The position numbers were made by a program, and so were the translations under genes. From Lytechinus pictus (taxonomy: Eukaryota), in contig NC_087251.1 of assembly GCF_037042905.1 (NCBI RefSeq), forward strand, positions 10,790,001 through 10,854,000: DNA of 64,000 nt, read 5' to 3'. Under the pieces are notes generated by a model. That model saw nothing but the letters and a program-made list of their open reading frames with translations. It ran no database searches and was not told the DNA's origin. Every line of letters begins with the position of its first letter. Within the stretch, counting starts at the first letter, position 1. Shown here piece after piece: positions 19,978-62,980 of this stretch.

Positions 19978-22900
19978 GTAAGTAGCCTACATGCATGAGA
20001 GATGATAAAAAAGATGTTTTTTATGTTTGCATTCTTGTGAATTTTAAAGGCTAGTTTTTCATTTTATATTAATAATACCTTATACCTCAGTCACATTTGC
20101 TCTATCGCGGCTGTACGGCAAGTCGAAAATGGCTGTTTTATTCATTTTTATTCAAACCACCTATAATGTAGGTAGCTATTACAAAATCAAAATGTTATAG
20201 AGGCCTAACGGCTGTTTTCAACTTGCCATACGGGCGCCATAGAGCAAATTTGGCCGAGGTATTACATGTGGTTTGACTCTTTCTTCAGACAAGGAACTTT
20301 AATGGGAGCTGGAGTTGCCCAAAATCCATTCTCTTCAAAGTCATGTTTGATACCGCAACTATATATTAAACATGTAGGCTACTCATATGGATTTGCCTTG
20401 CAGATTTTAGATGAAAAATTCCTGCCTGTCTGCAGACTTACTGGCCAGTTAAAAAGGGAAACATACTTTTGTATAAATAATAATTACTTTTTATGAAAAA
20501 TGGTTGGATGAAATGGAATTTCATTTTGCTGAATCTTGCAGGGACAAGCACAAATACAATGGTGCACTACTTCTTGAAATATTATACATAACTTGAATGG
20601 AAGAGTACAGTGTATGTCCACAATTGTGGTGCAAAACATCACAAGTACTATTCCAACAATCACAGCTTTAATTTTTGCCTGCTGGAAGTCATCAGAAGTG
20701 TGTCAAAATACAGAATACAGAATTTGTAAGTTTTACACAAGCTAAATTTCGGGGCACAACACACTGGCTTTGATACTCATATCTGTTCTTAATGTATCCA
20801 TGTTTTGCATTCAAATAAAACCAGAAATATTGCCAATAATTATAATATATTATTTTCAATACCAATCTCTTGCATTTTGTCCCAGAAACTGGCTGCTTCA
20901 CACATGTTTGTCCAATGCTGCATTATTTGATTTTTGTCTCACCTGCATAGCAGAGTGAGACTATAGGCGCTGCTTTTCCGACGGCGACGGCGGCGGCGGC
21001 GTCAACACCAAATCTTAACCTGAGGTTAAGTTTTTGAAATGACAGCATAACGTAGAAAGTATATGGACCTAGTTAATGAAACTTGGCCATAAGGTTAATC
21101 AAGTATTACTGAACATCCTGCCTGAGTTTCATGTCACATGACCAAGGTCAAAGGTCATTTAGGGTCAATGAACTTAGACCATGTTGGGGGAATCAACATC
21201 AAAATCTTAACCTAAGGTTAAGTTTTTGAAATGTCATCATAACTTAGAAAATATATGGACCTAGTTCATGAAACTTATACATAAGGTTAATCAAGTATCA
21301 CTGAACATCCTGCATGAGTTTCACATCACATGACCAAGGTCAAAGGTCATTTAGGGTCAATGAACTTTGGCCGAATTGGGGGTATCTGTTGAATTACCAT
21401 CATAACTTTGAAAGTTTATGGATCTGATTCATGAAACTTGGACATAATAGTAATAAAGTATTACTGAACATCCTGTGCAAGTTTCAGGTCACATGATCAA
21501 GGTCAAAGGTCATTTAGAGTCAATGAACTTTGGCCAAATTGGGGTATTTGTTGAATTACAGCCATAAATTTGAAAGTGTGTTGGTCTAGTTCATAAAACT
21601 TGGACATAATAGTAATCAAGTATCACTGAACATCCTGTGCGAGTTTCAGGTCACATGATCAAGGTCAAAGGTCATGTAAGGTCAAAGAACTTTGGCCACG
21701 TTGGGGGTATTTGTTGAATTGCCATCATATCTCTATAAGTGTATTGGTCTAGTTCATAAAACGTGGAAATAAGAGTAACCAAGTATCACTGAACATCTTG
21801 TGCGAGTTATAGTAGTTTTCAAAATCAGCACTGCTGCTATATTGAATCGCGTGATGCAGGTGAGACGGCCAGAGGCATTCCACTTGTTTTGTTGTTGTGA
21901 CTACAGTCATAACATATATTTACTTCAGAGCAGTTAAGGTCAGTTGAGTATTAGAATTTAAAAAATGTAATGTCCATAAATGTACATTACAAGACTTAAC
22001 ATTGCCATTCCTTTGATTCTGTCACAGGGCTTCCATTGGAAAAGTATAGATAATATCAAGAAATATGGAAATGTCTATGGGTAAGAATATGCCTTTTTAT
22101 TTCTTTTTATATGCCTGTCCTACGGGATGTATTATGGTATCACGCTCGGTGTCTGTCTGATCGTCCGTCTGTTAACTTTTCTTTGTAAATGCGATAACTT
22201 CAGTTTAATTAGGCTCATATAATTTGGTGTGTATGATACTAGCATGGATCTTGGGAATTCTATTGATTTTGAGGTCAAAAGGTCAAGTCGCCACCTTCAA
22301 CTTTTCTTGCTTGACCAATAACTCCATTTTCCCAAAAGGTCAAGTAGTCACCTTCAACTTTTCTTGCTTGACCAATAACTCCATTTTCCGCGTTACAGGC
22401 GGGCGTATTATGTGCTCGCCCCATCGACACTCTTGTTAAGTTATAAATAGAGAGGAAAGCTGAGATCTGGGACACAGCAGTGCACAATTCTGTTATAAGA
22501 AATACTAAGATGATGATTTCTTTGGATGACTTTTTTTAATGGAGGATGGGATTTTACTTTTGCTATGTTACAGCTTACTAACCTCAAGAAGGTATAAAGC
22601 AGATGAGATAACACAATCGATCGTATGTTCTTATTTGATATATACTTTGTTATATATATATCTGAGTAGGATTAAAAAGATACAATGTTTGTAAAATTGT
22701 CATTTTTACATTAAATGTAAGTTGTTAAATTCATCCATGTGACAATCAGATATTACCCTTTCACATGGTCATTTATACTTTTTCCCATGATTAGCACTGA
22801 TAATCAACCTGAAACATGGAAAATATCAGTTCACATTTTTATATTTCAAATTTAAGCTAAAATATATGAAGAACTGTTAAGGTATTTGGTTTAAGACTTC

Positions 22901-25900
22901 ATGAAAAAGATATTGCTTTAAGAATATCAAGTTCTCTTATAGATATTCTAATTCATTTTTGCATCTTTCTTTGTTTTTCAGCTTGTACATGTTTGGAACA
23001 CCTGCATTGTTTATTAGTGACCTTGACATGATAAAGGATATCACAGTAAAGAACTTCAGCAAGTTCATGAACCACAAGGTGAAAAGAGATATATTTTTTA
23101 AAATAAAATCTTGAGAAATGAAATGGCTCAATTATCTTACATTAGCTTTTATTAACTAACATATGGGGATGGGGGTCTACCAGATCCCCTCTATGCAGCG
23201 TAGTTCAACTCACAGGAAAAAAAAATTGCTGCAACATTTCCTGACAAGTGACGAAACCTGTGACAGGTGGATTTTCCTGTTTTGAAGTTATCCAACATAT
23301 TGCAAGTGCATGTCAGACCCAAAATTGTTCAACATCTTGATAAATTGTGCAAATTCAGTTCAAATGCTCTTTTAGCAGCATTAGTTTTACTTTTAGTGAT
23401 TAAAATGAAATAATATTATAGTGTTTATGATCAGAATGATGTGGCCAGCAAAAACTTAAGAAAATAAAATAAGAAAAAAAAATAAAAAAGGAAAGTAATA
23501 AGGGTCACAGTAATAATTCTATCTTCATCTAATTATTTTTTCAAATTCAAACAGCAATTTGTGTTGAAATCTCGACCATTTGACAAGGCAGTATCAGCAC
23601 TAAAGGACCAGCATTGGAAAGATGTTAGGAATGTCGTGACACCAACCTTCAGTGCTGTCAAAATGAAACAGGTATCTATGTCATTACCATGGAAACTGAA
23701 GTCATAAATCCTACATTAAATTCATGAATAGATTAGTCAGTGGTCTTTAGAAAGTGTATTAGTTTTTTTAGTATTGGGCATCCATCAATTCTGAATGATC
23801 ATGTTTTATATAAAAAAAAATAGCTGTGTCATAATGACATGAATATGAATTTGATGATGATGTAAATATTTTATTAGTAAATGACCGTTAAATTCATAGG
23901 TTACTTTTTCCTTCGTATTTTACTTTTGAATATATGAAATTAAAGGAGAATGAAACTCTTGGAGCAAGTTAGCTTTTGTGAAAGCAGAAAAATCAAAGAA
24001 TAAAATCAACAAAAGTTTGAGTAAAATAGGACTAGCAATAGAAGAGTTATGAGCATTTGAATGTCGAGATCACTAATGCTATGGAGATCCTCCCATTGGC
24101 AATGCGACCAAGATCTATGATGTCACAGATGAACAACTCTCCCCTTTTGGACACTGAAAATATACCCCAAAACATCTCTTTTTGCTCATTCTAATCATAT
24201 GACAAACGATTCATCAATGATATAATGTTGTGAAACCTCTGTACTTGTCCTCTCATAAACAGAACACCTCACCTTGTGATAGACTCTATAAAAGTGAGAA
24301 TATAAGTGAAATAAGTACTAAAGTAATGAGGGAGTTGTACGTTTGTGACATCACAGATCTTGGTCGCATTGCCAATGGGAGGATCTACATGGCATTAGTG
24401 ATCTCAATATTCAAATGCTCATAACTTTCTTATTATTCATTCAATCTTCCTCAAACTTTCAACAATATGTTTCTTTGATTTTTCTCTTTGATATGGATTC
24501 AGCTGGTTTCAAGGGTTTCATTCTCCTTTAAGCAAGTTTACTTTTTCCAGTGCAGACATTGTTTCCAGTGGAAATATATTTTTTTTCCAGGAGGTATGGT
24601 ATGAGGCGCCGATTGTACCAATATTATATAGAACAATTATTTGTTATATAATCATTATTTATTAAATAATAACTATTATTTATATATACATGTAATTTAC
24701 ATTTTATTTGTAAATAATTACTATTATATAAAATAACATTTCTAATTATTTATATATAATTCCAAGTAATACTTCATTATTTGTAAATAATAATAGTTTT
24801 ACATTCCATTATTTATAAATAATGATTATTTGTTTTTCATTATTTATAAATAATGATTATTTGATTTTCATTATTTATAAATAATGATTATTTGTTTTCA
24901 TTATTTATAAATAATGATTGTTTTTCATTATTTATAAATAATTTTTATTTGTTTTTCATTATTTATGAATAATGATTATTTGTTTTTCATTATTTACAAA
25001 TAATGATTATTTGTCTTTTATTATTTATAAATAATGATTTTCGTTTTTCATTATTTATAAATAATGACACTACATACTTCGTTATTTATAAATAATTGCA
25101 ATTTTTTTTCCATTATTTATAAATAAGTTTTCTATTATTTATAAATAATAATTATTTATTAACAATGCCAGTGCACATTTCTTTATTTATAAATAATTTG
25201 TTGAGTTTCCCATTATTTATAAATAATTTTTATTTGTTTTTCATTACTTATAAATAATGATTATTTGTTTTTCATTATTTATAAATAATGATTATTTGTC
25301 TTTTATTATTTATAAATAATGATTTTCGTTTTTCATTATTTATAAATAATGACACTACATACTTCGTTATTTATAAATAATTGCAATTCGTTTTTCCATT
25401 ATTTATAAATAAGTTTTCTATTATTTATAAATAATAATTATTTATTAAAGGACAAGTCCACCCCAACAAAAAGATGATTTGAATAAAAAGAGAAAAATCC
25501 AAGAAGCACAACACTGAAAATTTCATCAAAATCGGATGTAAAATAAGAAAGTTATGACATTTTTAAGTTTCGCTCAATTTCATAAAATAGTTATATGCAC
25601 ATCTGAGTCGGTATGCAAATGAGGGAACTGATGACATCACTCACTCACTATTTCTTTTGTATTTTATTATATGAAATATGAAATATTCTAATTTTCTCCT
25701 CATTGTCCTGTGAAACAAAATTTAATTTCGCCCTGAACATGTGGAATTACCCTTGTTTAACATTTTATGGTTCAGTCAAATTGGTCCTTATTGTCAAATC
25801 TGTAAGAATTGAAATATTGTATATTTCAAACAATAAAAAACAAAAGAAATAGTGAGTGAGGGACATCATCGATTCTCTGATTTGCATGTGACTAAATTGT

Positions 25901-28900
25901 GCATACAACTATTTTGTGAAAAATAAACGAAACTTTGAAATGTCATAACTTTCTTATTTTACATCCGATTTTGATGAAATTTTCAGCATTGTGCTTGTCT
26001 GATTTTTCTCAATTGATTCAAATCAACATTTTTCTGAGGTGGACTTGACCTTTAACAATGCCAGTGCACATTTCTTTATTTATAAATAATTTGTTGAGTT
26101 TCCCATTATTTATAAATAATGATTATTTGTTAAATAATGAAAACGTCTACTTCATTATTTATAAATAATTTTTTCGAGTGCGCCATTATTTTCATTATTT
26201 ATAAATAATCATTATTTAATGTTCGAGTTTTCCATTATTTATAAATAAAGATTATTTGTTAAATAATGAAATATCTACTTCATTATTTATAAATAATAAT
26301 TTTGTTTCAATATCCCATTATTTATAAATAATCATTATTTATAAAGAAAATTTACAGTTTGCCATTATATACAAATAATCATTATTCATATACAAATAAC
26401 CATTATTCATTAAATAATGGAAAACTCGCTATAACATGCAAATGTGGGACCGCCCATGATATGAATATTCACGATGCGATTTCCTTTTTCGTGATTTTTC
26501 TTCACAAACTTTTGTCCGTTTCCTCTTCATAATGGCATTTCTTGAAGCAATTTTCTAGGGATATGGTCTGATTGTAATATTCTTCATTTTCTATATAACT
26601 TCGTCTTCGTAGAAATATCAAAAAGTGTAATTTTATACGATTTTTCCTACAGTTCACAATCCCCGTAGGCGCGCGTGTATTTCACCTTTTCTCTCTGATC
26701 GTAGGAACAACCCAAGGGTTCATTACATGTTGTCGCGCACAGAAAAATTAAGCCATAGAAGTTGCGTGTTGTGGACACCAGAAGTGAGATCCCAGCACGC
26801 GAGACTCACTTGTTAGAAATCCACTGAAAAATGCGGTTCATGGTGCGACCTTAGTATACGGTACCTCGCAATACAAAATATTACGTTGGTTGGTCCCCGG
26901 AACTGTCGGGCGGAATTTAGCCCGAAATCCGGATCCTTAATGGAAGTGGATCAAGTGCATATGAGCTAAGAGAGTGAGTGTAAGTGCATCAGGCCCTTCT
27001 ACTTTCTATAATTTTTTGTTTTCAGTTAATTTTTCCCCAAAATGCTCGCAACGACAATACGGGGGCATGATGACCCCTAAATTTTTGAAAACTTATTTTT
27101 CTATTGAAAATTATCACAAAATTCACCAAAAGTGTGCACGAAAGCCTTCATATTTCACTTTTAAAACTCCAAAAAGTGCCCAAATGACTAGAACAAAAGC
27201 TTCAGTCTCTGTATTTTGGTTGTTCCGCTGAACTGCGTTGGCTCACTCACCAATAGACCAAAAGCTTCAGTCTCTGTATTTTGGTTGTTCTGCTGAACTG
27301 CGTTGGCTCACTCACCAATACATAAATGTATTGGTATTGGTAAATGGGGATTATAGTAAAATGTCAGAAATTGTTGAATAAATCCCCAGAAACGACGGTT
27401 ATTCATGTCTACCAAATGACAAGCTTGGTCGCTTCGCTGTGTCGCTTTCAACTTGAGAACGAGTTTACACGTTTATAGAAAGTAGAAGGGCCTGATGCAC
27501 TTACACTCACTCTCTTAGCTCATATGCACTTGATCCACTTCCATTAAGGATCCGGATTTCGGGCTAAATTCCGCCCGACAGTTCCGGGGACCAACCAACG
27601 TAATATTTTGTATTGCGAGGTACCGTATACTAAGGTCGCACCATGAACCGCATTTTTCAGTGGATTTCTAACAAGTGAGTCTCGCGTGTTGGGATCTCAC
27701 TTCTGGTGTCCACAACACGCAACTTCTATGGCTTAATTTTTCTGTGCGCGACAACATGTAATGAACCCTTGGGTTGTTCCTACGATCAGAGAGAAAAGGT
27801 GAAATACACCGTGCCTACGGGGATTGTGAACTGTAGGAAAAATCGTATAAAATTACACTTTTTGATATTTCTACGAAGACGAAGTTATATAGAAAATGAA
27901 GAATATTACAATCAGACCATATCCCTAGAAAATTGCTTCAAGAAATGCCATTATGAAGAGGAAACGGACAAAAATTTGTGAAGAAAAATCACGAAAAAGG
28001 AAATCGCATCATGAATATTCATATCATGGGCGGTCCCACATTTGCATGTTATAGCGAGTTTTCCATTATTTAATAAATAATGGTTATTTGTATATAAATA
28101 ATGATTATTTGTATATAATGGCAAACTGTAAAAATTGTTTATAAATAATGATTATTTATAAATAATGGGATATTGAAACAAAATTATTATTTATGAATAA
28201 TGAAGTAGATATTTCATTATTTAACAAATAATCTTTATTTATAAATAATGGGAAACTCGAACATTAAATAATGATTATAAATAATGAAAATAATGGCGCA
28301 CTCGAAAAAATTATTTATAAATAATGAAGTAGAGTTTTCATTATTTAACAAATAATCATTATTTATAAATAATGGGAAACTCAACAAATTATTTATAAAT
28401 AAAGAAATGTGCACTGGCATTGTTAATAAATAATTATTATTTATAAATAATAGAAAACTTATTTATAAATAATGGAAAAACGAATTGCAATTATTTATAA
28501 ATAACGAAGTATGTAGTGTCATTATTTATAAATAATGAAAAACGAAAATCATTATTTATAAATAATAAAAGACAAATAATCATTATTTATAAATAATGAA
28601 AAACAAATAATCATTATTTATAAGTAATGAAAAACAAATAAAAATTATTTATAAATAATGAAAAACAAATAATCATTATTTATAAATAATGAAAACAAAT
28701 AATCATTATTCATAAATAATGAAAACAAATAATCATTATTTATAAATAATGAAAAACAAATAATCATTATTTATAAATAATGGAATGTCGAACTATTATT
28801 ATTTACAAATAATGAAGTATTACTTGGAATTATATATAAATAATTAGAAATGTTATTTTATATAATAGTAATTATTTACAAATAAAATGTAAATTATATA

Positions 28901-31900
28901 TAAATGATAGTTATTATTTAATAAATAATGATTATATAACAAATAATTGTTCTATATAATATTGGTACAATCGGCGCCTCATAGTATGGTGCTGAAATAG
29001 GAAATCACATTTTTATGCTGCATAGTGTAGTAGTTTATATTCATGGTACGCACTGAACTTTCTTAAGTTTGCATGTTATTTTGATATTTTTTTTTATTTC
29101 AGCTATCAGGTTTACTTAATGAATCCATTGATAGTTTGGTGGAAAACTTTGGAGCAATTCAGAAGAAAGACAGCAAGGTGAAAGTCTTCAAGTAAGCTAC
29201 CTCTTTAATAGGAACAACTTGAACTAGATTTTAATTCGTCATGCGGACGAATTAGGTGGTGTGTCGTAGAAAGATAAATACTAGTAGATAAACATACATA
29301 ATTATTTAAACAAATGAGTAGATATAAGATTGAAAGATAAATAGACAGTCAGATAGACATCCCGGGGGGGCCACTTACATTGACGAGTGGATACCATGCG
29401 CGACCAAAAAAACACGTAAAAAGGATGTATTTTTCAATATAGGGCACGTTACGTATGTAATGTGATAAGGGTGTAAAAAACACAAAAATAATGAAAAAAG
29501 GGTATCTATTTCGCTAGGAAAGTTACGTGTTTAGGGTCAAATTTGCGGGGATGATAAAACAAAATCAAAATGTTTTATAAATGATGTCCTTTTTGCCCCA
29601 ACACTACGTGTTTAGAGTCCGATTTGCGCGAGGTGTGGAAGGTGGGGTCGTACTAAACCAAATGAAAATCGATGACCAAAGGACCCGTGACATAACAATA
29701 AAATATTCCTGTACTTGTTTAGGGGCTCATTTCGGAGAATATTTGCCAAGAATATTGTTTTGTTCCCAATACTTGTTAAGGGTAGGGTTTCACACGCCAA
29801 TACTTGTTAAGGGGTGCATTTTCAGAATATGGAAATTACGTGTTTAGGGTGCTTTTCGAGACCCCATGGTCGCGCATGGTATCCACTCGTCAATGGAAGT
29901 GGCCCCCCCGGGAGATCTACAGGTTTTTACTTATTAGAGTTGGAAATTAAGGCTTCAGAGGCCAATTTAGACCAAATATTTTCCCCCTGCTTTTGACAAT
30001 TTTAATTCCCTTTTCATTGTTAAGAGCATGTCATACACCTTGTAATCATTTTTACATTGTGGAGGGCCTGTTTGCTAACTGCACCGATGACAGATTTTGT
30101 GACACTATTAGGCCCTATAGGGTAAATAAATTTGTATGAACCGTGCAGTTTAACCGAAGGTTAACCATTTCAAGATTATTTTTAAATCACAAGGCCCTTA
30201 TATTGCTAAAATTGAATAGAGTAGTTATCATTTATTCGGTATTAGCATTATGAGTACATTTTCAGATCATGGGTCAAGGTCAAAGGTCATTTCAGATCAC
30301 TTAACTTTACTAAAGTCAACAAAATTTGTGTGGAATATGGTTTTATTGAATCAGAATATAAATTTAACATGAACTTAATAATGTATTTAAAAGTCAAGGT
30401 CAACCGAGGTCAATGAATTCTGTTTTTTGTTATCAAATATATTAGCTAGGCCCTATTTTGTTCTCTGAAAAAAAAAAAATTCCATGAATTAAGTTTGCAT
30501 AGTCCTAAGCCTCAGTCACCCATTGTGTGAATAAAAACTTTCAGGTCATTGGACCCAGGTCAAAGGCCATTTCAGACCAAAATCTTGGATGAAATTGAAA
30601 TTCAGTCCTTATTTCAAAAGCAAACGGTCATATCCATAGCACATATCAAGTTCATATAAGTCTAATGATCTGCTCAGATGGGGGTGGTAGTAGACTAGCG
30701 AGGTGGTCATCAATGTAACTTGATATTGACAGATCATAGCGTACTATCATACAACCTATTTCAATGAAAATAATATATACAGTGGTGCTTACAAGTTAGT
30801 GAACCTTACCAAAAAAATGAACCTATTTTAGCGTTCAAGTTCTGTTTTAAGAGATATCTAATTGTAGTGTCAGGTGAGAAAATATTACATTCAATAAATT
30901 TATCTGGGCTTGCCGAACATTGTACCGTTGTCTACAGGGATAGACATACATATTTATATAAGTGGATAGATTAATAGAAGAAAGGTAGATAAATTATATC
31001 TTGATATATAGATAGATAGATTGATAGATAGATAGATAGATATAGAGATATATATATATAAACATATAAATACGTATTAGATAGATAGACAGATAGACAT
31101 TAGATAGATAGATACATAGATAAATAGATAGATAATGATTGATGACAAAAATTACGATGATGATGAGGATGATGATAATTATGATTGATGACAAATAAGA
31201 TGATGATGATGATAACGGTGATTATGATATTATATATGCACAGATGGACAGACAGAAAATATATCGATATATTTATTGATAGATAAACAGATAGAATAAC
31301 ATATTAAACAGATTTAATAGATAGATAGATATTAGATAGACAAATAAACAGACATAATTATTTAAACAGATCAGTAGACATTAGATTGGAAGATAAAAAG
31401 ATAGACATACATATTTAAACAGATAGATGGATAGTCAGATAGATAGATAGATGGATTGGATGATATATAAAATAAAGGTGGATATATTGATAGGAGATAG
31501 ATAGATAAACATACATAATATTTGAAACATATAAATATATATTAGATTGAAAGATAAATGGATCGATAAACAGATAGACAGACAAATTCAAATAGATAGA
31601 TATACGATAGATAGATAGAACATAGATAGATAGAAAATAGATAGATAGAGAGACAGACAGACAGACATACAGATAGAGAGATAGAGAGAAAGAAAGATAG
31701 ATAGATAGATAAATATATCATGTAGATAGATAGATAGACAGATAGATAGATAGACAGACAGACATATAGATAGATAGATAGAGAGAGACAGATAGATTGA
31801 TATAGAAAGATAGATATATTCAAACAGATAAATATATAATTTATTAGAGAAATAGATAGATAGATAGCCAGACAGACAAACATATAGATAGATAGTTACG

Positions 31901-34900
31901 GTAGATAAATAGATGGATAGATAGATAAACATATTTAAACAGATATATATATAAATATATTAGACAGAGAGAGAGATCGATAGATAGATAGATATAAAAT
32001 GTAGGTAGATAGACAGACAGACAGATAGATAGATAGATAGATTTATAACATAGATAGCGGATAGATAGACGGATATGATTAGATAGATAAATTAGACAAA
32101 TTCAAATAGATAGATAGATAGAACATAGATAGATAGAAAATAGAGAGACAGACAGACAGACATACAGATAGAGAGATAGATAGAAAAAAATAGATAGATA
32201 AATATATCATGTAGATCTATAGATAGATTGAAAGAGAGAGACATATTCAAACAGATAGATATATATTATACAGAGAGATAGATAGATAGATATGTCATGT
32301 AGGTAGATAGATAGACAGACAGATAGATAGATAGAAAGATAGATAGATTTACAACATAGATAGCGGATAGATAGACGGATATGATTAGATAGATATAATA
32401 TGGAAAAAGTAATTATTATCTGTTTTATTTTGCAATATTTTAACTATTATTTATCAGAATTCTTATAATTGATCCTGCGCAAGTAAAAAAAAAAAAAAAC
32501 ATGCTCACCCTCGGACTCGAACCCCTGCCCGCATGACTGAATGAGATGCAAGTCTGACGCCTAACCGATTGAGCTAAAATATTTCCCATAGACTTTACAC
32601 GTATGCAAAATACGAGAATCTCAAATCTAATTTTGCAAGTGAAATACGGGCATGATCCCGGCATCTGATCGGAAAATGGAGGGAACTCTTGTGATAACCC
32701 AGGAGCTCAGCCACATCATACTCAAAGCTCAGCCAAAACCGACTATAAATTGTGGAGATATTGCTCACGAAATAGAGGAATGTAGAATCCAGTTTTGAGA
32801 AAAGTCATCTCCCATTACGTCTTACCCCCGTTTGGGAACGGACCGCAGTTCGGATTGCAAACTGCGGTATTTCACCCCATTTTGCGTTTGAAAATCTAAA
32901 ACATCATTTCCAAGCCCTGGGGGTCGTTTCATAAAGCTGTTCGTAAGTTAAGAGCGACTTTAACAACGACTGGTGATCATCGCCAATTGTACCATTTACC
33001 GCAAGACATGATCACCAGTCGCTCTTAACTTACGAACAGCTTTATGAAACACCCACCTGATCAACCCCGCTTGGCCAGGTAATCCCCACAGGCCAGATTA
33101 TGAGCGTTGAGCCAAGGACGAAATGATAACAACAGCTGTGCTATTACGTAAGTCTTCTCTGCCTGTAGAAGGACCTTCGGAATTAAATTATTGTATTCGA
33201 TATTTAATCACGTTTTCAAAGGCATATTGTATTCAGAAATTCAATGCTAGCCCATTTTCAATTTCGAACAAAGAAAATCAACCTCGAAATAAGGAAAGTA
33301 AGTGAATAAAAAATGGCGACATGTTTTCCCGGACCGCACTCGGGCTGTTGTGTTATCTTCGGACCGAGGTCAAGAAACAGGTGTTTTGATACTTACATTG
33401 CATGCCTGGGGCAGTAGGGTTTTCGTACTTGGAGAAGAGGGGTATAGTGTTATCAAACGGAGCTCTTTCGTCATGCATAGAGATTACACGCAAAATGAAC
33501 ACAAATGACATGCCTTTATAATTTGCCATTATTCAGTTTTATCTTGCTATATTTTAACTTTTATACATTTTAATTGTCATAAAGGATCATGTACGAGGTG
33601 GTAAAAAGAAAAAAAAAAGAATAAAAAAATATCATCTTGTGCACCCCAAGAATCGAACCTGGGACCCCAAAGACGCAAGTCAAGTGCGTTATCCATTCAG
33701 CCACGATATTCCCCATAGAGATTACATGTTCCCATAGAGATTACACGTAAGCAAATTTGAGAATTACAAATCCAACTTTGCAAACGAAAAATGGGCATGA
33801 TCCCGGCATCTGATAAAAAAATGGAGGGAACATCTGTGATAGCCCAGGAGCTCAGCTACATCATACTTAAAGCTCAGCCAAAACCGACAATAAATTGTGG
33901 AGATATTGCTCACGAAATAGAGGAATGTAGAATCCAGTTTTGAGAAAAAGTCATGTCCCATAGAGATTACACGCAAAGTGAGTAAAAATGACATGCCTTT
34001 ATTATTTGAAATTTTTCAGGATAATCCGTTTATTAAAATGAGAAATAAAGGTAATAAATCAGAAAGAGTAAGACCTAAGCTACAACAAATACAAAATTGG
34101 GCAAAAATTGACCAATATTCAAGGAGTTAGAGCCAAATTTGCATAAATTTGATGAAGTCACTTTTGAAAAAAATGAAATTTTCAGTTTCGGCGCGATTTT
34201 GATGACGTCATGATCAAATTGAGGGACAATGGTGACATGAAATCAAATCTACAACTCATACTCTATCGATATATGAAAAAAAAATTGGGGGTCAACGGAC
34301 TATTTAAAGAGCTACAGTGTACAGTGAATTTTGAATAGGCATGTTTTTGCCATATAGAGCCTATGGAAAGAGCTCGCGCGCACACGTGCTGCAAACTTTA
34401 ATGGGTGCTCATTCCCTCATTAATGATCGTAGAGAGCTGATCGAGGTATCAATTTGATTAGAATTATATCAATAATAGATACGCATAGAAAAAAGAGCAA
34501 ATTTATGCTGCGTAATGCTGTTACGCACGAAATCGCTCGCACATACGTGCGCGCACGCAAAATGTTGAAATGCTTAAAATGACCTGAAACGTACCCAAAA
34601 TATTTTATAGGCCATTTTGAGAATTTTTTTAGCTTTGACGCCCGCGTCATGACCTTACATGACCTTTGATGACATTGACAGACGACCTTTGACCTAAAGT
34701 TTATTTGATGTAAATATGATTGATTATTGATGATCCGTTATGTTAATATGATCAAATTAAGAATTTTACAAAATGGCGCGTAGATGACGTTATGACCAGA
34801 TGACCTTGAAAAGCTTAGTATGCCGTCTCTATGATAGACTCTATATATGACAGAAAAATCAGCCAAATTGATTCTGCCAATTCGGAGAAAAGTCGGCGAC

Positions 34901-37900
34901 AAACATAGGTGCTAGAAATAAAGAAATAAAGAAAGAAAGAAATAAAGAAAGAAAATTCTGACGAAATTAAGAGGTGATCTGTCAGAGACAGACCACCTAA
35001 AAAGCTCAAACCCTAGTAGAATTCTTGTTAAACATGAATGTCAACAAAGACAAAATTGGTTTGAATAATATGATAATAATATGGTCCATTTATATAGCGC
35101 AGAGTATAATTGCATATACTCTACTGCGCTTGATACTTGGTATTATATTATTACCCCGGCTGTAGCTGAGCCGCCATATAGGCGCTAAAGCATGAATAAA
35201 TCCTACCGGGTACCCATTCACCTCACCTGGGTCGAGTGCAGCACTATGTGGGTAAATTTCTTGCTGAAGGAAAACACGCCCCTCTGATTGAAAGACGAGA
35301 GTAGTAACTACTAGACCACGATGCCCCCCCCCCCATAATATCAAGTAAAATGATCATCCAAATGTTTTTGTGTATAAATTAACAATGTGTGCCAATATGA
35401 TCTTAACACTACAAAGTACAAAAAAGATGGGTTTGTAATGCTTTCCTGAAAATTGCTTGTGATGGAGACTATTTAATTGCAAGTGGCAAATCATTCCAGT
35501 ATTTTGAAGCTGACACAGTAAAGGTTCTATCAAAACCATGCAATGGCTGAGAATAAGCTTGGCATTCCAGTCAGGTGTCAGATATTTTTCCAAGCGATAA
35601 TGATATTCCAATGTCCTGTTTGGGCTTATCTGTTGTGTTGGTGATATATTTTCAGCTTAGATTTCATGATTTGTAAAAAAGAAAAAAGTTTTTGTATCTA
35701 TAAGTTCTTGATCCACAATGATATAGGGACAATTTACTTTGATTTAATGACTTTTTTTTACTCCAATTAGAAACTGCAATAAACTGTCCGTTTTTCTTCT
35801 TTCCCCTTTCTCTTTCCTCTTATGATTGTGTAACGTAGTTTATTTGAAGCATTCACGATGGATGGAATTGCTAAATGTGCTTTTGGACTACAGGTAAATT
35901 CACAGAACAACCCAAGTGATCCATTCGTCACCAATGCAAAGGAGTTGATGAAGAATAGAATATCATTGAAAGTACTGGTTGCTGGTGAGTTGATTTGATA
36001 TATATTTGATATGATAGAGGTGATTAAGAGATGGTCTTGTGATGAATCATTGAAATGGATTTCAAGAGAAAATTTAAGATAAACAGTTTAATGACCCTTC
36101 CCAATATATATCAAAATAACATGCATCTGAATATCATCATCCTATCTACAAAACCAATGATTCTTTAATAATGGTCTATGATATGCAGGAGGAAGTGTAG
36201 GGAATAATTTACTTTCTGATCTACAAAATGCAAGTTCTGTAGACAATTATTTAAAAAAAAATACAAGAATATCCATGTTTCTTAGTATTCTCCCCACTCT
36301 CTATGCTATCTATTTTTATGCAGGTTATATTCAATAATTTGATATTTGCCTCCCTGGTGCACATGTACATTCATTTCTCAGATGTTTATTGTTAATAATA
36401 CCTATGTTACTCAGACTTTAGGAGATATTTTTGTATTTGTTGTTGAAGTTGTTTATGTCGACAGGACCATGTTGAAAAACAGTGTACATTATTTGATTGA
36501 TTGATTTTATTTGTCAAGAATATCACAGGTGATTATAATGAAATGGAAGAATACATTGACAGGATAGCCCATGAAAGCTGAAAGGCTTATTTCCAATGGG
36601 GTCCTATTGTTAGTATAAAACATTAATATATTGTAACAACGAAAAGTATAAACTACAACAAGTAATGGAATATGGTAACAAAATACATATCCATCAGTCA
36701 AATAATTTGCAAACACCTGAAGCAAACAATAATCTACCTGAACATGTTATCCTGCATGTAAAATATCTTTTGATAAATAAATAAATAAATACTTGCATTA
36801 AAAAATGCATAAATAAATACATAACTAAAGAAATGAATGAATGAATGATGGATGGATGGATGAATGAATGAATGAATGAATGAATAAATAAATAAATACT
36901 TACTGAAATAAATAAATAAATAATAAGTAAGTTAATGATCTATCCATACTTTAGAGAAAAAAAACTGTATTCAATTATTCAATGTATAACAGATCAACTC
37001 GGCCTCAACAAGAGCAGTCAGATTGCATCATATACAAGTAAAAACATGTTTCTTTTATTATATGCTACATCTCTTCTAATTTTATATTCAATTTTGGTGA
37101 AATTTTCAGTGTTATGCTTTGTCTTTTTTTTCTCATCTTATGCAGGTTATTATTAGGGGAACTTGACCTTTGAATGGGTTAAATGCAGACAAATTCATCA
37201 TTATCAATTGTTAATTTTTCATACTCTTTCTGTTCTCAGGTGTTTTCCCTACCATTGGTAAAGTGATGGATTACTTTAGAGTCAGTGCTCTGTCATATAA
37301 AGTTCAGCAATTCTTCATCTCTGTAATTGATCAAACAATCACAGCTCGCAGGGAAAATCCAAGCTCAAAGGTATACTATGGAAAGGTCTGCCGTAACTTG
37401 ATTAGTTTACAAGCTCATGTTTAATGCTTAAATCCAGGTTTGGTAGCAAATGAAAAAGAAAATGTGAGGATAAAGGGATTATTGTAATGCAAATCCAAAA
37501 TTATGTAATTACACCACCAAGATTATTGTGACTAATGTCTTCATTTAATGTTGTGGCAGCGGTGGGATGAGCTAAGACTCTGTATGTTGATGTTCACATT
37601 TGAAAAAGTTAACAGCCTCTCGGTAGGCAAGTGGTAATTACTGAAGCAGTACTTTTTTTACTTTGTTGAGCATTCACCCATTGATAACTGTTGGAATTTA
37701 TGTGAAGACCTTTTTTGCATTCCTGTTTGTAATGTTTGTAAAGTTTCATTGCTTTGCTTACCTCAATAGGTGAGATGTGATTATATGGTTTAATTGTGAT
37801 TTTATGGTTAAGGAGCTATTTAGATGTCAGGTTGATATTGCATTAATTAAGAAAGTTATCAGAAGGGAAAGAAAATTTAACACAGGATGGAAATTGATCA

Positions 37901-40900
37901 CCCAATTGTGGAATGCTGCCCTCTCTTGGAAAGGGTTATATATTGTGTAGAAGCGCCGTGGTGTAACGGTTCTGACTCGCCTTGTAATCAGAGGGTAATG
38001 TGTTTGAATCGCACCATAGCCTAGCGTTCTTTAGCAAGGAGTCAATCCACACTTTGCCACTCTCACCCAGGTGCTAATTGGGTACCGGTAGGAAACAACC
38101 GTCATTGTGATTGGTTTAGCAAAATGTGCGCCTAACAGGCTGCTTGAAATACTATGATAAAATAGCAGTCGTAGATTGATAAATGCCAATTATTATATAT
38201 GTGTACTATCATTGGCCCTTATTGGCCAGCTTTGTGAAGTAAAGAGGCTCCATCTTATCGACTGAGACGACCAACATTATTGTGACTGTTTTTTTGTTTA
38301 ACGATGCTTGTCCTTGATCCTGTCACTAAATAATAGATATGCTAATAAAGATGAAACTTGTTCAATACCAATGGTTGTCTGTTCATCATTCTTAAACATT
38401 CCCAGTTCACTTCAGTCATAAATCTTTTAAACGTTTGATTAAAAACTGGTCAGAAATGACTGCAGGCATAACAAAAATATTGTCAATTTCAGAATTTTAA
38501 TATTTCCTTAAGGCTGAGAGACAGGAAATTCAGGATGATAAAATGGTGAACATTAACTTTGTTGCTGGTGGCACTGATCTGTTCAGATCATAATCACTAA
38601 TAAGTAATACATTTACTTATCATAACCACTAACCCTTTCATATACACTGTTTTCTCAGATGAAGGACTTTCTTCAGATTTTAATGAATGCAGAGCAGGGA
38701 TACAAATCAGAAAGTGAGATAAAAGAAGAGAAATTGCAGGAGAAGAAATCAGAAGATGATATCCATGCTTCAGTTGATGAACAGGAAAATGAAAGCTACT
38801 TCAAGAAGAGCAAGAAGACAACTCTAACGAGGGATGAGATATATGGTCAGGTATGTGTATCTATGTAATCATTTTTTTTCAATTCAGTTAGTTAGATATA
38901 TCTTTCAGCAATTTTGATTAATTTTCTGTTCTGTTTGCATACATTTTTTTTTAGATTTCCGAAACCAAAAAGAAATCTTTAAAACCCTTCATTATTAAAG
39001 TTTTCTTTATTATCCGAAAATAGAGAATTCAAAATTGTAATAGATGTAAAACGTATTTGTGTTATAGAATAAAGAGGAAAAATGCACTATTCAAACATTT
39101 TAAAAGAAAGACTGGACAATTAATATGAAGTGTTTGCAACTGACTGTTTTCACATTATCAAAACGTTTCATAAACGTTGAAAGATTCCATTGCATGCTGG
39201 TCATTTATAATCTAAGCTTCATATTTTCTCCCTAATTATTTCCATTGTCTGTGATGATTAAGGCCATTCTTTTTGTTTGTTATGAATGAGATGACCTCTT
39301 AAGATATTTTGTTTTACTATGTGTATATATTTCATGCATGTGTAGTACGGGGTTCTGACAATTTCACATTCCTAGTACTCTTAACACAGAGGCAGCCCAG
39401 CAGACATGTTGTCAGGTTGAGAACCTACTGGCCAACTCCCAGGTTTTAATTATTCAAAGCCTTGTTGCATTCTTTGTAACATTCCATGCAAATTAGTTAA
39501 GGCACATCAATATTCATATAAATGTAAATCAATTAACAGAGTTTAACTGAATATTCAAATATACAAACAAAAGATATATATTGACTATTCAAACTATATG
39601 CAAATTATCTAAGCTTGAGTGCATCAACTTAACATTTTAACCAATCAGGAGAGAGGTGGAAGGAGAGGGAGAGTAAGAGAGAGAAAGGAGTGAAGGAAGC
39701 TGTATGAAGGATGGTGGAGTGATTTAATACAAAAGAACCTTGTGTGAGGAGTGTACAGCAGTTAATGTGTAAGAGAGAGCTGTACAGAGTTAGGATGAAA
39801 AGGGTGGATATAAATGAGGGATGTTCTAATATAAAAAGGGGATGATTCCTGAATAAGAATGGAAAGAAATAAACGTACAAAATCAATCCCTACACATGCA
39901 TAATTTCAAGACAATGTATTTTTACTTGCCTTCTTCCATTTACTAGGCTATGATATTCTTTTTGGCTGGTTATGAAACCGTCAATGTCACTCTTGGATTC
40001 TTGGCATATGCCATGGCTGCAAATCCTGATGTTCAAGAAAAACTCATTGAAGAAATTGACAGTCTGACTCCAACTAGAGATGATGTTAGCTATACATCCA
40101 TTGCAAAGATGCCTTATCTGGACAATGTTGTCTGTGAGACTCTTCGACTCTACCCTGCCGGTATTATGTGAGTATTTAATTATAAAACAAGGATCAAGGA
40201 TGTAGCAAATAGCATGTGCATGCATGTGCAAGTTGCATGCTCATGCTTAAATTCTGTGCAACCTTCTAGCCATGCATTTTTGATGCAGCACTGTGCATTT
40301 TTATCTCACGTGCATAGCAGAATGAGACTGGGGGGGCACTCACATATATTGGTGGTATGGGGACGTGCCGCTTGCATGACCCCCTTTTTCAGACCTAATT
40401 TTCAGTTCTCTAGATACTCCGAATGACAAAATTTCAGTTCAGAAGCCGCCCAGCCCCAATCGCAAGACATATCAGTTCCCCAGCCCTGCCAAAATTGTCA
40501 AGCGCGATCGCCACATGCGAGAGATGCACGCACAGCTTCGCAACTCACTCCATATACATGTAACTAGTAGCCACTCCATGTATGTCTAGCGCATGCACAG
40601 CGCTAGCGTGCACGTAATTATATAGTGCCGCGATCCCGTTCCGTAGACCCTGTTTTTCACACCGCGCGGTATATATTTAGTTCCCAAGATCCCGTACTTT
40701 ACCATTGTAGTCAGTTTCTTAGACCCCATTTCTGAGTTTCGTGAGGCACACCCCCATCAAAAAATGATTTGAGTGCTCCCCCCCCCCCCCCCCCGGGACT
40801 ATAGGCGCCGCTTTTCCGACGGCGTCAACACCAAATCTTAACCAAAGATTAAGTTTTTGAAATGACAGCATAACTTAGAAAGTATATGGACCTAGTTGAT

Positions 40901-48460: not shown

Positions 48461-49625
48461 TAGTAGAGCGGATAAGCCGAACAATTGTGCAAATTATGAC
48501 TAAAGCATGAAACTTTCACAAGTATTAGTTTATGCCGTAAGATTTATTTTAAAGATGGGAGATAAATTCATAAATGTCATTTTTGGCCGTTGCCATGGCA
48601 ACGGATTAATTTCTCAAAAATAATGTACATTTCCATGTAAATGGTAAATAAGTATGATATAGATGACCAAAATGATAAGTTTCAGGCTCCCAAATGAATA
48701 CATATGAAATTTAGAAATATTCAAGATCACCAAGATAGTTCTAATCGGTCCGTTGCCATGGCAATGCCTTTTTTTTTCCCAGAAAAATGAAAAATTTGAT
48801 TAAAAAAACATTGTAGAATATGATTTATCTTTAATTTCCCCCAATTTTACAGTGCTAAACAAAGATATTTTGGTTGCTAAATGTATAAATTACATTTCAA
48901 GCTATTGGCAACCAAATAACTTCTAATTTACAAAAATAACATGACTGACAAGACAATGGACAGGTGGAAAATACAATTGGAATTGACTTAATCTGTATGC
49001 TTAAGTTTTGACCCCCTCATTTGAACAAAAAATACAGAAAGTGTTCTTTATAAAGATGAATAATTATGTTGCCTTGGTAATGCTTGAATTAAATTTTTTT
49101 TAATGTTGCAAAGGGCCTGTTGCCATGGCAACAGCTCATTTCCCTCTAGAAAGGTTATTTGTTATTTTTTAAATTAGATGTTATTTGGTTGCCATGGCAA
49201 TGGCTTGAAATGTAAATTACACATTTAGCAACCAAAATATCTTTGTTTAGCACTGTAAAATTAGGGGAAAATAAAGATAAATCATATTCTACAACGTTTT
49301 TTTAATCAAAATTTTTATTTTTCTGGGGAAAAACAAGCCGTTGACATGGCAACGGACCAATTTGAACTATCTTGGTGATCTTGAATATTTCTAAATTTCA
49401 TATGTATTCAATTGGGAGCCTAAAAATTATCATTTTGGTCATCTATATCATGTTTATTTACCATTTACATGGGAATGTATGTTATTTTTTAGAAATTAAT
49501 CCGTTGCCGAAAATGGCATTTATAAATTTACCTCTCATCTTTAAAATAAATCTTACGGCATATACTAATACTTTCATGCTTTAGTCATAATTTGCACAAT
49601 TTGGTTCGGCTTATCCGCTCTACTA
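48461..49625. mobile_element. foldback-type MITE with multiple X-box palindromes
   Basis: TAGTAGAGCGGATAAGCCGAAC TIR with ~400-bp inverted arms; ATACA on both flanks. Confidence 0.85.
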
Positions 49626-49628
49626 ATA

Positions 49629-49852
49629 CAGTTGTGTGTGCTCAAAAGTTAGTGAACCCTAACAGAAATTGCACTCCTTCATACCGAGTGTTGAATGTAG
49701 ACAACGGTACAATGTTCGGCAAGCCCAGATAAATTTATTGAATGTAATATTTTCTCACCTGACTCTACAATTAGATATCTCTTAAAACAGAACTTGAACG
49801 CTAAAATAGGTTAATTTTTTTGGTAAAGTTCACTAACTTGTAAGCACCACTG
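49629..49852. mobile_element. Tc1/mariner MITE
   Basis: CAGT..GTGCT.A.AAGTTAGTGAAC imperfect TIR with TA flanks. Confidence 0.7.
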
Positions 49853-50556
49853 TATATATTATTTTCATTGAAATAGGTTGTATGATAGTACGCTATGATC
49901 TGTCAATATCAAGTTACATTGATGACCACCTCGCTAGTCTACTACCACCCCCATCTGAGCAGATCATTAGACTTATATGAACTTGATATGTGCTATGGAT
50001 ATGACCGTTTGCTTTTGAAATAAGGACTGAATTTCAATTTCATCCAAGATTTTGGTCTGAAATGGCCTTTGACCTGGGTCCAATGACCTGAAAGTTTTTA
50101 TTCACACAATGGGTGACTGAGGCTCCCACTGGCGTAAATCCCGGGGGGGATGGGGGGGGGATATATCCCCCCCACTTTTGGAGGAGGGGGGGGGGTGGCC
50201 AGTACAAACATCCCCCCACTTTTTACGAAAGAAATTTTTAAAAAATCACAAGAGATAAGTGTTTTATTGGTGAAAATTCTTCCTGAAATACCGCTTAACA
50301 AATAAAACAATATCATTGAATCATATAAAAATGCAAATAAAGAGCCAGTTCACCATTTCCAAACGAAATACTTATGTCCTTATTATAACATTGAAGAGAA
50401 ACTCCCGTTTCTTCCAATTCATCAATGTTGGGGTCTTTGGGAAGGGATTAAGATGGAATGTCAATTCTTTTTTAATGTAATCTCTAATAAAACCATTAAA
50501 CCATCATGGGGTAAAAAAGATAATAATATTGGAGGGGTATTTGCCATATGGACATA

Positions 50557-52302
50557 CAGTGGCGTAACTACGGGGGGGGGGGGGGCATGGGGGGCACGCC
50601 CCTCCCCCCAATCGGCTGACAAAAAAAAAACGGGGAAAAGGGGGAAAGGAGAAAAGAGGGAGAAAGAAGAGAAGCGTATAGTGGGAAAGAAGAAAATATT
50701 ATTCATTATAATGTTATATTATAATTATGTTATGTTACATTACATAAGAAACATTTTTATCATAACTTCATGAAACATAATTTGCCCAGGGCCTACGTCT
50801 TCATTGTTCCTGGTGCTTGCATTGTCTGTTAACGAGATATATAATCCTGTTGTACTGAAACATCCCGTTTTCAAGTCAATATAAACCAAATATATTTCCT
50901 ATAGCACTTGAGTTATCATTGTTTTATGTAATGACATATGCTTCTTTTACATGACTCAAAAAGTGATTGCCCCATGTTAAGGTCTTCGTATATATGAAAC
51001 ATTTCCTGTCCGTGATTACGTTCGCATTAGTGGATTGGTGAGATATGTCTGCTCTTCATGAATTCCTAAAATCAGTCCTTAAAATGTCCCTTCTTCTGAT
51101 CTGAATATCAAAAATTTTCAGCTTGCGCTTCGCGCTCGCATCATTTGGATATTGAATTACGTATGGTCCTAGTTAATTCCTACAAAGAAACCTTAGAATG
51201 CCCCACTTCAGGTCTGAATTATCTAAATTTTCAGCTCGCGCTTCGCGCTCGCAATTTTTGACCCGGGGGGGCCACTTCCATTCACGAGTGGATACCATGC
51301 GCGACCATGGGGTCTCGAAAAGCACCCAAAACACGTAATTTCCATATTCTGAAAATGCACCCCTTAACAAGTATTGGCGCGTGAAACCCTACCCTTAACA
51401 AGTATTGGAAACAAAACGATACTCTTGGCAAATATTCCCTGAAATGAACCCCTAAACAAGTACAGGAATATTTTATTGTTACGGGTCCTTCGGTCGTCGG
51501 CTTTACCTTATTTGGTTTAGTACGACCCCACTTTCTACACCTCGCGCAAATCGGACTCTAAACACGAAGTTTTGGGGCAAAATGGACATCCTTTATAAAA
51601 CATTTTAATTTTGTTTTATCATTCCCGCAAATTCGACCCTAAACACGTAATTTTCCTAGCGAAATAGACACCCTTTTTTCATTATTTTTGTGTTTTTGAC
51701 ACCCTTATCACGTTACGTACGTTACGTGCCCTATCGTGAAAAGGACATCCTTTTTACGTGTTTTTTTGGTCGCGCATGGTATCCACTCGTCAATGTAAGT
51801 GGCCCCCCCGGGATTTTTGATTAGTGAGATGCGTATGATAATCATGATTGCAATGACTACAAAAAGTGTTTCATGTGTTCAGATATAATTCTTATAAACC
51901 AGCAAGCGCTTGGCACTCGCATTAGATGACTATGGTGAGATATGCATACTCTTAATGGATTCCTAAAATATATTCCTCAAAATATCGCTGTTTGCATGGG
52001 GTCAGAATATACGAAAACTTCAGCTCGCGCTTCGCGCTCGTATTGTTTAGCGAGACAGGTACCTATCATGATTACACAAATTTGACAATAATGTCTCTTT
52101 TTAGGTGTGAATATTAAAAAAAATCAGCTCGCGCTTCGCGCTCGCATTATTTGATCAGGGAGATGCATATCCGTTTAATGACATTGTCCAGAAAATGTCT
52201 CTATTAGGTCAGTATAACTGGCAACTGAGCGCGCTCACTCAGTGATTCAAACATTTTGCTGGTGCCCCCCTCCCCAATGCCGTGACCCACCGTACGCCAC
52301 TG
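50557..52302. mobile_element. hAT non-autonomous element (middle layer)
   Basis: TIR CAGTGGCGTA; 8-bp TSD TGGACATA at 50549 and 52303; internal GCTCGCGCTTCGCGCTCGC repeats. Confidence 0.9.
51262..51812. mobile_element. CCCGGG-ended MITE (inner layer)
   Basis: ~46-bp TIR; 8-bp TSD ATTTTTGA at 51254 and 51813. Confidence 0.9.
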
Positions 52303-53204
52303 TGGACATATCACTAATGACAATTCCTTGCATATCTAAAAACATGATTGCAAAAAAAAAAGCCAAAATATTTCAGTCATCCCCCCACCCATCAACACGG
52401 ATTTACGCCAGTGGAGGCTCCTATAGGACTATGCAAACTTCATGGAATATATTTTTTTTCAGAGAACAAAATAGGGCCTAATATATTTGATAACAAAAAA
52501 CAGAATTCATTGACCTCGGTTGATCTTGACTTTTAAATACATTATTAAGTTCATGTTAAATTTTATATTCTGATTCAATAAAACCATTCCACACAAATTT
52601 CTTGATTTTATATAAAGTTAAGTGATCTGAAATGACCTTTGACCTTGACCCATGATCTGAACAATGTACTCCGGCATATTGCTAATACCGAATAACTGAT
52701 AACTACTCTATTCAATTTTAGCAATATAAGGGCCTTGTGATTTCAAAATATCTTGAGATGGTTAACCTTCTGTTAAACTGCACGGTTTATACAAATTTAT
52801 TGACCCTAATAGTGTCACAAAATCTGTCATTGGTGCAGTTAGCAAACAGGCCCTCCACAATGTAAAAATGACTACAAGGTGGATGACATGCTCTTAACAA
52901 TGAAAAGGGAATTAAAATTGTCAAAAGCAGGGGAAAAATATTTGGTGTAAGTTGGCCTCTGTACTCTCCTAATTTCCAAATCCAATAGGTAAAAACCTGT
53001 ATTTTTTATTTGCTTTTTAGTGACTTCAACATTTATAAACAACAATGAAATACTTATGAAATCATAAACTGACAAATAACTTCATACATGTACATCAAGG
53101 TACCAGTATAAAATAACAGAATTGAATTGCATGGACCTGGATAATCATCGAACCATATATGGAGCTAACAGTACGATCGAATCCCCTTCACCCTTCCCCC
53201 CTGG

Positions 53205-53660: not shown

Positions 53661-54032
<372 letters not shown>

Positions 54033-61277: not shown

Positions 61278-62089
61278 TGACAGATTAAACTGACTCAAAC
61301 TCTACAGGCTTATTACCTGTAGAGAGTAACAGTCATGTACATGTAAGTTTACCATTCTCAAGTCAAATACCACAATTTGGCACAGTGTATTAACTTTATA
61401 CAGAAATTAGACTCCATCTAGATTCTACTGAAATTACATCTACTTAATACTTAAAAACATTTACAGTATTTGCTCAGGAATATTTGTAAATCATTATTTC
61501 CAGATTGTAATTTTGAGTTATCCATGGACGTATATGCTGTGCATTGATTCATATGCATTCTCAGCAGGGAGCTTAATTATATAGTGCTGTATAATCATAG
61601 AGATGTATACTAATAACGCTAGAGTGCGGAGTCGCCATAGGCGCGCGTACTTAACGTTTGTGATTGCGCGGAGAATGGTCGGCCATTGCTCGATAGGTCT
61701 CGATTTGCAAAAGTACCCGGATGTACGCATAGCTCGTGCGTTGTAATGCTGTGAAAAAGGGATGCCGTCTCCGGCCTTTTTCTTGAAGAAAAGAATCCAA
61801 CCTAATTACAATCCGAATCGAAAATATGAATGACAAATTGCATCTCAATAAACTATTAGAGTGATTACATGGGGATTCTGCTATTAATTTGGCATTTTTA
61901 AACCTGATTTCTCGGGATGAAATTCTAAATAATTTGCATTTATACCTGTCCGTTTATAGGCCCTTAATAGATAACAATGTTGATACTATCATATAAATAA
62001 TTAGATAAAAATTAAAAACATACAACGGACATTAATAGAAAGATTGACAATTGATTCAAAAGACAGTGAATTAGCCCATCCCCGGAGCC

Positions 62090-62861: not shown

Positions 62862-62980
62862 CTGCAGGCCTACATGTATATGGCCCGAAAATGAAATATT
62901 GATTAAAAAATGTCGAGAATATAGCTTTTTATTGTTCAAACTTTTCACTTTTTAATTCCCTTCACTAAGTTCACTTTAAT

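Follow-up and report, generated by a model that had tools for sequence, protein, structure and literature searches.

In the parts of Tan et al. (2021, PMC8277862) considered here, Pack-TIRs formed by gap filling are marked by a bias towards templates in cis, by microhomology and by occurrence as a single copy. For complex insertions made by SD-MMEJ, the corresponding parts of Yu and McVey (2010, PMC2943611) describe overlapping copies of nearby sequence and inverted-repeat junctions. Here we describe a composite of a MITE and a host-DNA passenger within a 64,000-nt stretch of Lytechinus pictus DNA, the whole of which is hereafter called the window. Like the single-copy Pack-TIRs presented in those parts of PMC8277862, it is a non-autonomous TIR element with host DNA inside a pair of target-site duplications (TSDs), seen in one copy, with a nearby template in cis, short microhomology and a size within the range of 100-5,000 bp; ATAGACAT surrounds element and passenger (29353 and 30940), and the parental copy has no such TIR element within 100 bp. 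It differs in that the passenger lies at the very tip, with at most 3 bp of element beyond it: the whole 552-bp MITE stands on the left and at most GGG on the right, whereas the pipeline of that study, as those parts describe it, required the TIR element on both sides. The passenger is also longer, at 1 kb against a median of 224 bp given there. Junction repeats from the participating ends, as in templated insertions, are present in the form of TACA and an 8-nt echo. The direct and inverted junction repeats are like those of SD-MMEJ and FoSTeS/MMBIR-type switching as treated in the same parts of PMC2943611, and the overlapping short copies suggest several rounds of priming; the SD-MMEJ inserts described there are, however, short and local, and to copy 1 kb at a distance of 20 kb, strand invasion or fork switching is required. 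We regard the composite as most likely a terminal variant of known repair capture, and as a tidy local example of it, seen once.

In the literature searched, no report obviously describes such a tip-capture layout, although we do not claim its absence from print and the supplements of PMC8277862 may list terminal cases; the part of PMC13317346 considered adds nothing on terminal capture. The composite would show how the ends of DNA transposons gather neighbouring DNA through repair. Since pipelines that need the element on both sides would miss captures at the very tip, a count across this high-copy MITE family could reveal undercounted tip captures and whether 8-bp echoes are systematic.

The features are collected in Table 1. 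From left to right, the composite reads ATAGACAT, a MITE of 552 bp, a filler of 5 nt, an inverted copy of 1,019 bp, GGG and ATAGACAT again, and the window holds one such composite. The template lies in cis in the same window, ~19-23 kb away. Self-BLAST and alignment bear out all the parts that the earlier note had listed (the MITE, the inverted copy and the words at the junctions). Its observation is thus confirmed, and its interpretation partly supported: its microhomology-templated insertion beside the MITE gains support from the TACA shared by the donor ends and from an echo beyond chance, and its macrotransposition through a cryptic GGG end is not supported, the donor reading TTC there and no MITE lying at 53001.

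Table 1. Positions in the window of the composite, its donor and the neighbouring features
Feature	Position	Strand	Basis or remark
CYP3A-like exon upstream of the host intron	29103..29191	+	AG/GT ends; in-frame splice to 35839
Left host repeat, hairpin near 29231-29251 followed by GATA-rich tract, interrupted by the MITE	29222..29352	+	Depth in organism A; contig of organism B
Left TSD ATAGACAT	29353..29360	+	Single in tract unit 31401 and in organism B contigs
Complete non-coding MITE, CCCGGG ends, 46-bp TIRs	29361..29912		92.4% identical to sibling
Filler AGATC, 5 nt, neither MITE nor donor	29913..29917	+	Alignment
First junction echo TCTACAGG, 2 filler and 6 donor bases	29916..29923	+	Sequence
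Captured block 1, inverted copy of 53001-52424	29918..30507	-	~91% identical to donor
Captured block 2, inverted copy of 50124-49696	30508..30936	-	99.3% identical to donor
Second junction echo TCTACAGG, 6 donor bases and GG	30931..30938	+	Sequence
GGG, not donor-encoded	30937..30939	+	Donor alignment
Right TSD ATAGACAT	30940..30947	+	Sequence match
Right host repeat, GATA-rich tract with higher-order units	30948..32400	+	Self-comparison
CYP3A-like exon downstream of the host intron	35839..35985	+	In-frame splice with 29103..29191
Complete TA-flanked Tc1/mariner-like MITE; copy ends inside it at 49696	49629..49852		Sequence
Donor of block 2	49696..50124	+	Self-alignment
Nested insertion of 2.3 kb, 15-bp TIR, TSD GAGGCTCC at 50119 and 52414	50127..52413		Not in the copy
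Sibling MITE, 8-bp TSD ATTTTTGA at 51254 and 51813	51262..51812		Alignment
Donor of block 1	52422..53001	+	Self-alignment

We propose that the passenger was probably copied in by gap-filling break repair at the right tip of an earlier-inserted MITE, and that the composite never moved as a unit. The site would first have carried the host repeat, which is missing there in a related species. The MITE would have inserted next; ATAGACAT stands on either side of MITE and passenger together, and uninterrupted copies of the repeat have it once. The right TIR may then have been broken at or within its last 3 bases, perhaps through abortive one-end cleavage or fork stalling at the G/C-run end. The broken end would have used the region 20 kb off in cis as its template, giving an inverted copy, and re-primed in short hops between template ends that share TACA; such hops could have left TCTACAGG at both junctions, the palindromic filler and the repeated GG(G). 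Identity to the donor steps from 99.3% to ~91% at the site of the donor's 2.3-kb insertion, and a sequence exchange may have stopped at that heterology. Several features sit less easily with this scheme. The MITE end and the start of the donor share no direct microhomology; extra hops are thus needed for the 5-nt filler, and one allele does not reveal their order. In the parts of PMC8277862 considered, breakpoints of single-copy Pack-TIRs are skewed to the interior and most templates in cis lie within 15 kb, whereas here the passenger is terminal and its template ~20 kb away. The scheme also leaves as a coincidence that the echo is exactly 8 bp, the TSD length of the family. Among the runs covered, no allele with the MITE alone was seen.

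Taken without the passenger, the MITE is a complete element, and its sibling has an 8-bp TSD of its own; both facts favour a MITE that was in place before the gap was filled. The TIRs of the composite's MITE are complementary at 45 of 46 positions, and it is separated from the sibling by 32 substitutions and 3 indels over 547 columns. The perfect TSD ATTTTTGA around the sibling bears out the earlier note on that point. The family is of very high copy, with a summed depth of 0.4-3.1 million against 30-180 in unique flank (three runs of organism A). Consensuses of loose ends at the MITE ends are mixtures with an agreement of ~0.4, uninformative on TSD length or passengers, so the family's TSD of 8 bp is read from the sibling and the present copy. 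A search of the window for the TIR with up to 5 mismatches returned the two known MITEs and no others, and exact-pattern scans of metagenome contigs gave no match to further copies of it. Dating by MITE divergence was set aside; all 8 sites listed have the family-majority letter in the sibling, which may reflect subfamily rather than age.

The earlier note had left room for ATAGACAT being a chance match in the GATA-rich tract, in which the word is also present at 31093 and 31401. It occupies 2 of 1,453 tract positions, which puts the chance of a match at ~0.6% for four allowed offsets; a looser estimate from 8-mer collisions gives 0.8% per offset and ~3% for four. In the paralogous tract unit at 31401, one ATAGACAT is followed by the same bases as in the right flank, and a contig of organism B is 97% alike over 29241-29360 and then runs straight into sequence like the right flank (2 contigs at the loose end). 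Since ATAGACAT is single in both, we accept it as a true TSD. The organism B contigs and unit 31401 show an uninterrupted host repeat, and they may be paralogues rather than an orthologous empty site. This repeat, which extends over 29222-32400 and which we take to be reminiscent of Helentron-associated elements, has a hairpin with a perfect 8-bp stem and, in its tract, higher-order units of 300-460 bp; depth over 29194-29261 is high in the organism A runs. The orthologous contig of organism A departs from the window at 29227 in 2 of 3 runs (in the third it stops earlier), so organism A lacks the host repeat at the composite site.

The assignment of the 49.7-53 kb locus as donor, made in the earlier note, is upheld: the copy breaks off within a complete TA-flanked element, which we take to be Tc1-like, and of which 30780-30936 in block 2 is a severed piece. 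The donor ends carry TACAGG and TCTACA. The donor lacks both GGG and an adjoining MITE, in agreement with gap filling from a template in cis. These same features bear on macrotransposition or end bypass, in which a donor-side MITE would have moved with 1 kb of flank by means of a GGG cryptic end and made ATAGACAT on landing. The TSD does bracket the whole composite, both the composite and the MITE have GGG as their last bases, and, compared with the sibling locus, MITE and passenger point the same way; end bypass is moreover known for P elements in Drosophila (as summarised in the parts of PMC8277862 considered), where it or gap-repair capture likewise places host DNA and a TIR element inside one TSD pair. 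According to that summary, however, end bypass requires that an element lie beside the source and that the flank offer an end that can be used; both are missing at the donor. The window has neither a MITE nor a footprint at 53001, and no TIR-like end is found in the donor flank; no CCCGGG MITE lies in the 100 bp flanking either donor end (49696 or 53001). The sibling MITE is 1.2-1.6 kb inside the nested insertion, away from the donor ends, and the end at 49696 falls in the different, Tc1-like MITE. In run X3 of organism A, a donor-like contig stops matching exactly at 29918, the same base, and its next 150 nt show no match to the MITE. Read in the direction of the copy, TACAGG in the donor is preceded by a run of A and TCTACA is followed by TTC, so that neither AGATC nor GGG is donor sequence and a donor-encoded cryptic end has no basis, despite the 99.3% identity of the adjoining block. 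Filler and echo would stay unexplained and the right end has only 3 of 46 TIR bases, so we consider macrotransposition very unlikely.

Depth data came from 4 of the 23 sequencing runs listed (best share 0.22), three of them from organism A. Because organism A differs from the window flank by ~6% (12-15 letters in 217-238 bases, largely alike in the three samples), it is probably a related species and not the window's own genome. In its runs, the passenger bins at 29942-30213, 30350-30485 and 30622-30757 have depths of 0-82; bins without cover (30622-30757 in X1 and X2, and the unique parts in X15) were left out as evidence. Single-copy depth is not exceeded by the unique parts of the passenger in any of the 3 organism A runs; these parts make up 8 of the 14 bins wholly within it (~60%), with 1-2 contigs per run at the sites listed. 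The contrast between MITE and passenger amounts to four orders of magnitude in this related species, summed depth not being the same as copy number. Low depth in the unique parts is in line with gap filling. It speaks against the passenger being a mobile repeat itself, or having arrived with the Helentron-like host repeat and landed at the MITE end. Such a passenger would find some encouragement in its short GGTCAAGGTCA-type common-repeat motifs (shared with the arrays at 21 and 41 kb), its piece of the Tc1-like MITE, and the high depth of the bins holding them in organism A. We attribute the high bins to these short motifs and the Tc1-like fragment. With no TIR, poly-A tail or Rfam hit of its own, and cutting another element mid-body, the passenger is highly improbable as a mobile unit.

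At the junctions, the bases assignable to each source overlap. GGG at 30937-30939 equals the last 3 bases of the MITE, or else consists of GG from the echo and one host G, and its last G lengthens the flanking duplication to 9 nt. The join of filler and donor reads AGA-TCT, a palindrome. TACA is contained in both donor ends (P 0.007), and TCTACAGG arises twice, each junction adding two bases that match the other donor end. An echo of at least 8 nt across both junctions has a probability of 1.9e-4 to 9.7e-4 (four nulls, 200,000 random end pairs each), or 0.02 under a looser null that does not demand junction crossing (20,000 pairs). The two signatures, TSD and echo, overlap and are inseparable on one allele. 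On the simplest reading, the TSD stems from the original MITE insertion and the echo from later repair at the tip with short re-priming among the ends; the shared TACA and an echo beyond chance are in keeping with this. As side observations, AGATCTACA, which the host tract has at 32210 on the minus strand, is a lead to the filler source and nothing more (Markov expectation 0.016, several words having been tried, with no primer match), and a third TCTACAGG, in 61301-61323, is followed 7 bases further along by its reverse complement, the two making a short inverted repeat for which no link to the composite was seen.

A circle closed at TACA accounts for the echo equally well, and must then open at its own junction. 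On this view DNA excised as a fragment or circle, with the shared TACA as its point of closure, would have integrated at the MITE tip. Both junctions hold the full chimeric word TC-TACA-GG, as joining of the donor ends would create, and the echo has the 8 bp of the family TSD. Hairpin-forming transposases leave opened-hairpin ends, which AGA-TCT resembles, although a 3-bp palindrome is weak evidence. The copy is, however, collinear with the donor apart from 2 extra bases at each end; the circular permutation that an opened circle can produce is not found, so opening would have to fall at the circle's own junction, under 1% of the 1,019 positions, and the donor segment is still in place. The circular-DNA insertion put forward in the earlier note is thus not required, and on balance we regard it as unlikely. 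A stronger version holds that the MITE transposase targeted the circle junction and integrated the extrachromosomal circle at its microhomology, with TCTACAGG as a second 8-bp TSD nested within ATAGACAT, and that the second MITE of this cointegrate was later lost, leaving G/GGG. The search of the window for the TIR (up to 5 mismatches) found no remnant of a second MITE longer than 3 nt, and this version seems to us improbable; if true, it would give insertion-sequence-type cointegrate capture a counterpart in animals, and the abundant MITE family would become a routine capturer of circles.

The earlier note had taken the copy as one event of one age, missing a step in identity between its two blocks that tells against this. 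Aligned with the donor, block 2 shows 3 substitutions over 429 columns, confined to the Tc1-like part, its first 297 bases being identical; block 1 shows 25 substitutions over 569 columns and, in addition, 11 indels (Fisher p 3e-4 on substitutions, 1.5e-6 when indels are counted as well). The boundary coincides with the donor's 2.3-kb insertion site, where a random boundary would fall in ~1.6% of cases per mean gap of 16 bp. The comparison of the passenger with organism A covers 21 listed sites, all differing from the copy (94 further rows lie outside these): organism A agrees with the donor at 8, has a private letter at 12 and a third letter at 1, so that, of the 16 substitutions separating copy and donor in 29948-30273, at least 8 are likely to have occurred on the lineage of the copy. 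The 36 differences in block 1 and the 8 sites at which organism A sides with the donor indicate that the copy has a history of its own. They count against an assembly or polishing artefact that fused the MITE to sequence from 50-53 kb. So do a TSD in register with the uninterrupted host repeat and the lack, in copy and related species alike, of the donor's 2.3-kb insertion. Such an artefact could be seen in the near-identity of block 2 and in the fact that no listed contig spans the junctions (among the joints listed for the 4 runs, none crosses the insert, with 288 joints and 2,111 loose ends beyond those); we hold it to be most improbable.

Near-identical block 2 likely arose by sequence exchange ending at the donor insertion. 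One possible form is ectopic gene conversion that took place later, between the inverted copies, to which we would give somewhat less than an even chance; a homologue switch during the repair itself is a rather doubtful second, and a third, allelic exchange at the donor or a haplotype switch of the assembly there, is doubtful to the same degree. In the parts considered of Harpak et al. (bioRxiv 10.1101/135152), the mean human conversion tract is 250 bp, which fits a block of 297-429 bp, and a few hundred near-identical bases beside a diverged block resemble non-allelic gene conversion as described there; here, by contrast, the boundary is a 2.3-kb insertion, and conversion is indistinguishable from homologue switch or allelic exchange. 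With sea-urchin heterozygosity at 2.9-5% in the part of PMC9557091 considered, an allele diverged by 4.4% is plausible.

The donor is itself interrupted. A contig of organism A (run X3) crosses the insertion site without the 2.3-kb element, in which the sibling MITE and an inner element at 50557-52302 (TSD TGGACATA) are situated. Both copies of the donor TSD carry two bases that are missing from the copy and, in the rows listed, from organism A, so the insertion likely arose on a background other than that of the copy's source. An excision footprint at 30507 was considered and rejected, the 4-nt difference there being partly common to organism A (a 2-nt insertion relative to the copy in the rows listed). 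Viewed on its own, 50119-52421 is a three-layer nest of elements with a perfect 8-bp TSD for each layer, missing in the related species' orthologue. Immediately beside the donor, 48461-49625 is a palindromic element with TAG-type ends and arms ~88% complementary, 3 bases from the Tc1-like MITE.

The host of the composite is a CYP3A-like gene of the + strand, in whose intron 29192-35838 it lies. Later exons of this gene have matches to Pfam p450 (3 of 4 CYP pieces tested) and to human CYP3A4, and its last exon-like frame is at ~46.7 kb. The start codon of TRMT61A is at 53670, and the donor of block 1 stops ~670 bp upstream of it. The donor, between CYP and TRMT61A, is intergenic, so no exon was captured; the passenger is non-coding and intronic, with no function indicated, and a structured-RNA scan of 29000-53700, passenger included, gave no Rfam hit. 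An inversion with duplicated breakpoints was ruled out, the DNA between the inverted copies not being flipped: the CYP exons keep their order and + strand across the copy and up to 46.7 kb. The inverted blocks 30508-30936 and 49696-50124, 19 kb apart, flank the 3' two-thirds of the CYP gene, and recombination between them is predicted to invert and break it; the window allele is not inverted there.

Of additional note are other repeats in the window. Directly upstream, the previous CYP intron has a large foldback at 24600-28983, with outer arms ~88% and inner arms 98% complementary, AT-rich 31-bp repeats and a 6-bp direct repeat GTATGG on both sides. The intron of the composite also contains a 234-bp direct repeat (32583-32815 and 33729-33961, 89% identity). 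Related arrays of 163-192-bp units with GGTCAAAGGTCA-type motifs occupy 20959-21808 and 40797-41654, and short degenerate versions occur in the captured segment. Finally, 62090-62862 is an exact 386-bp tandem duplication of 100% identity, either very recent or an assembly artefact.
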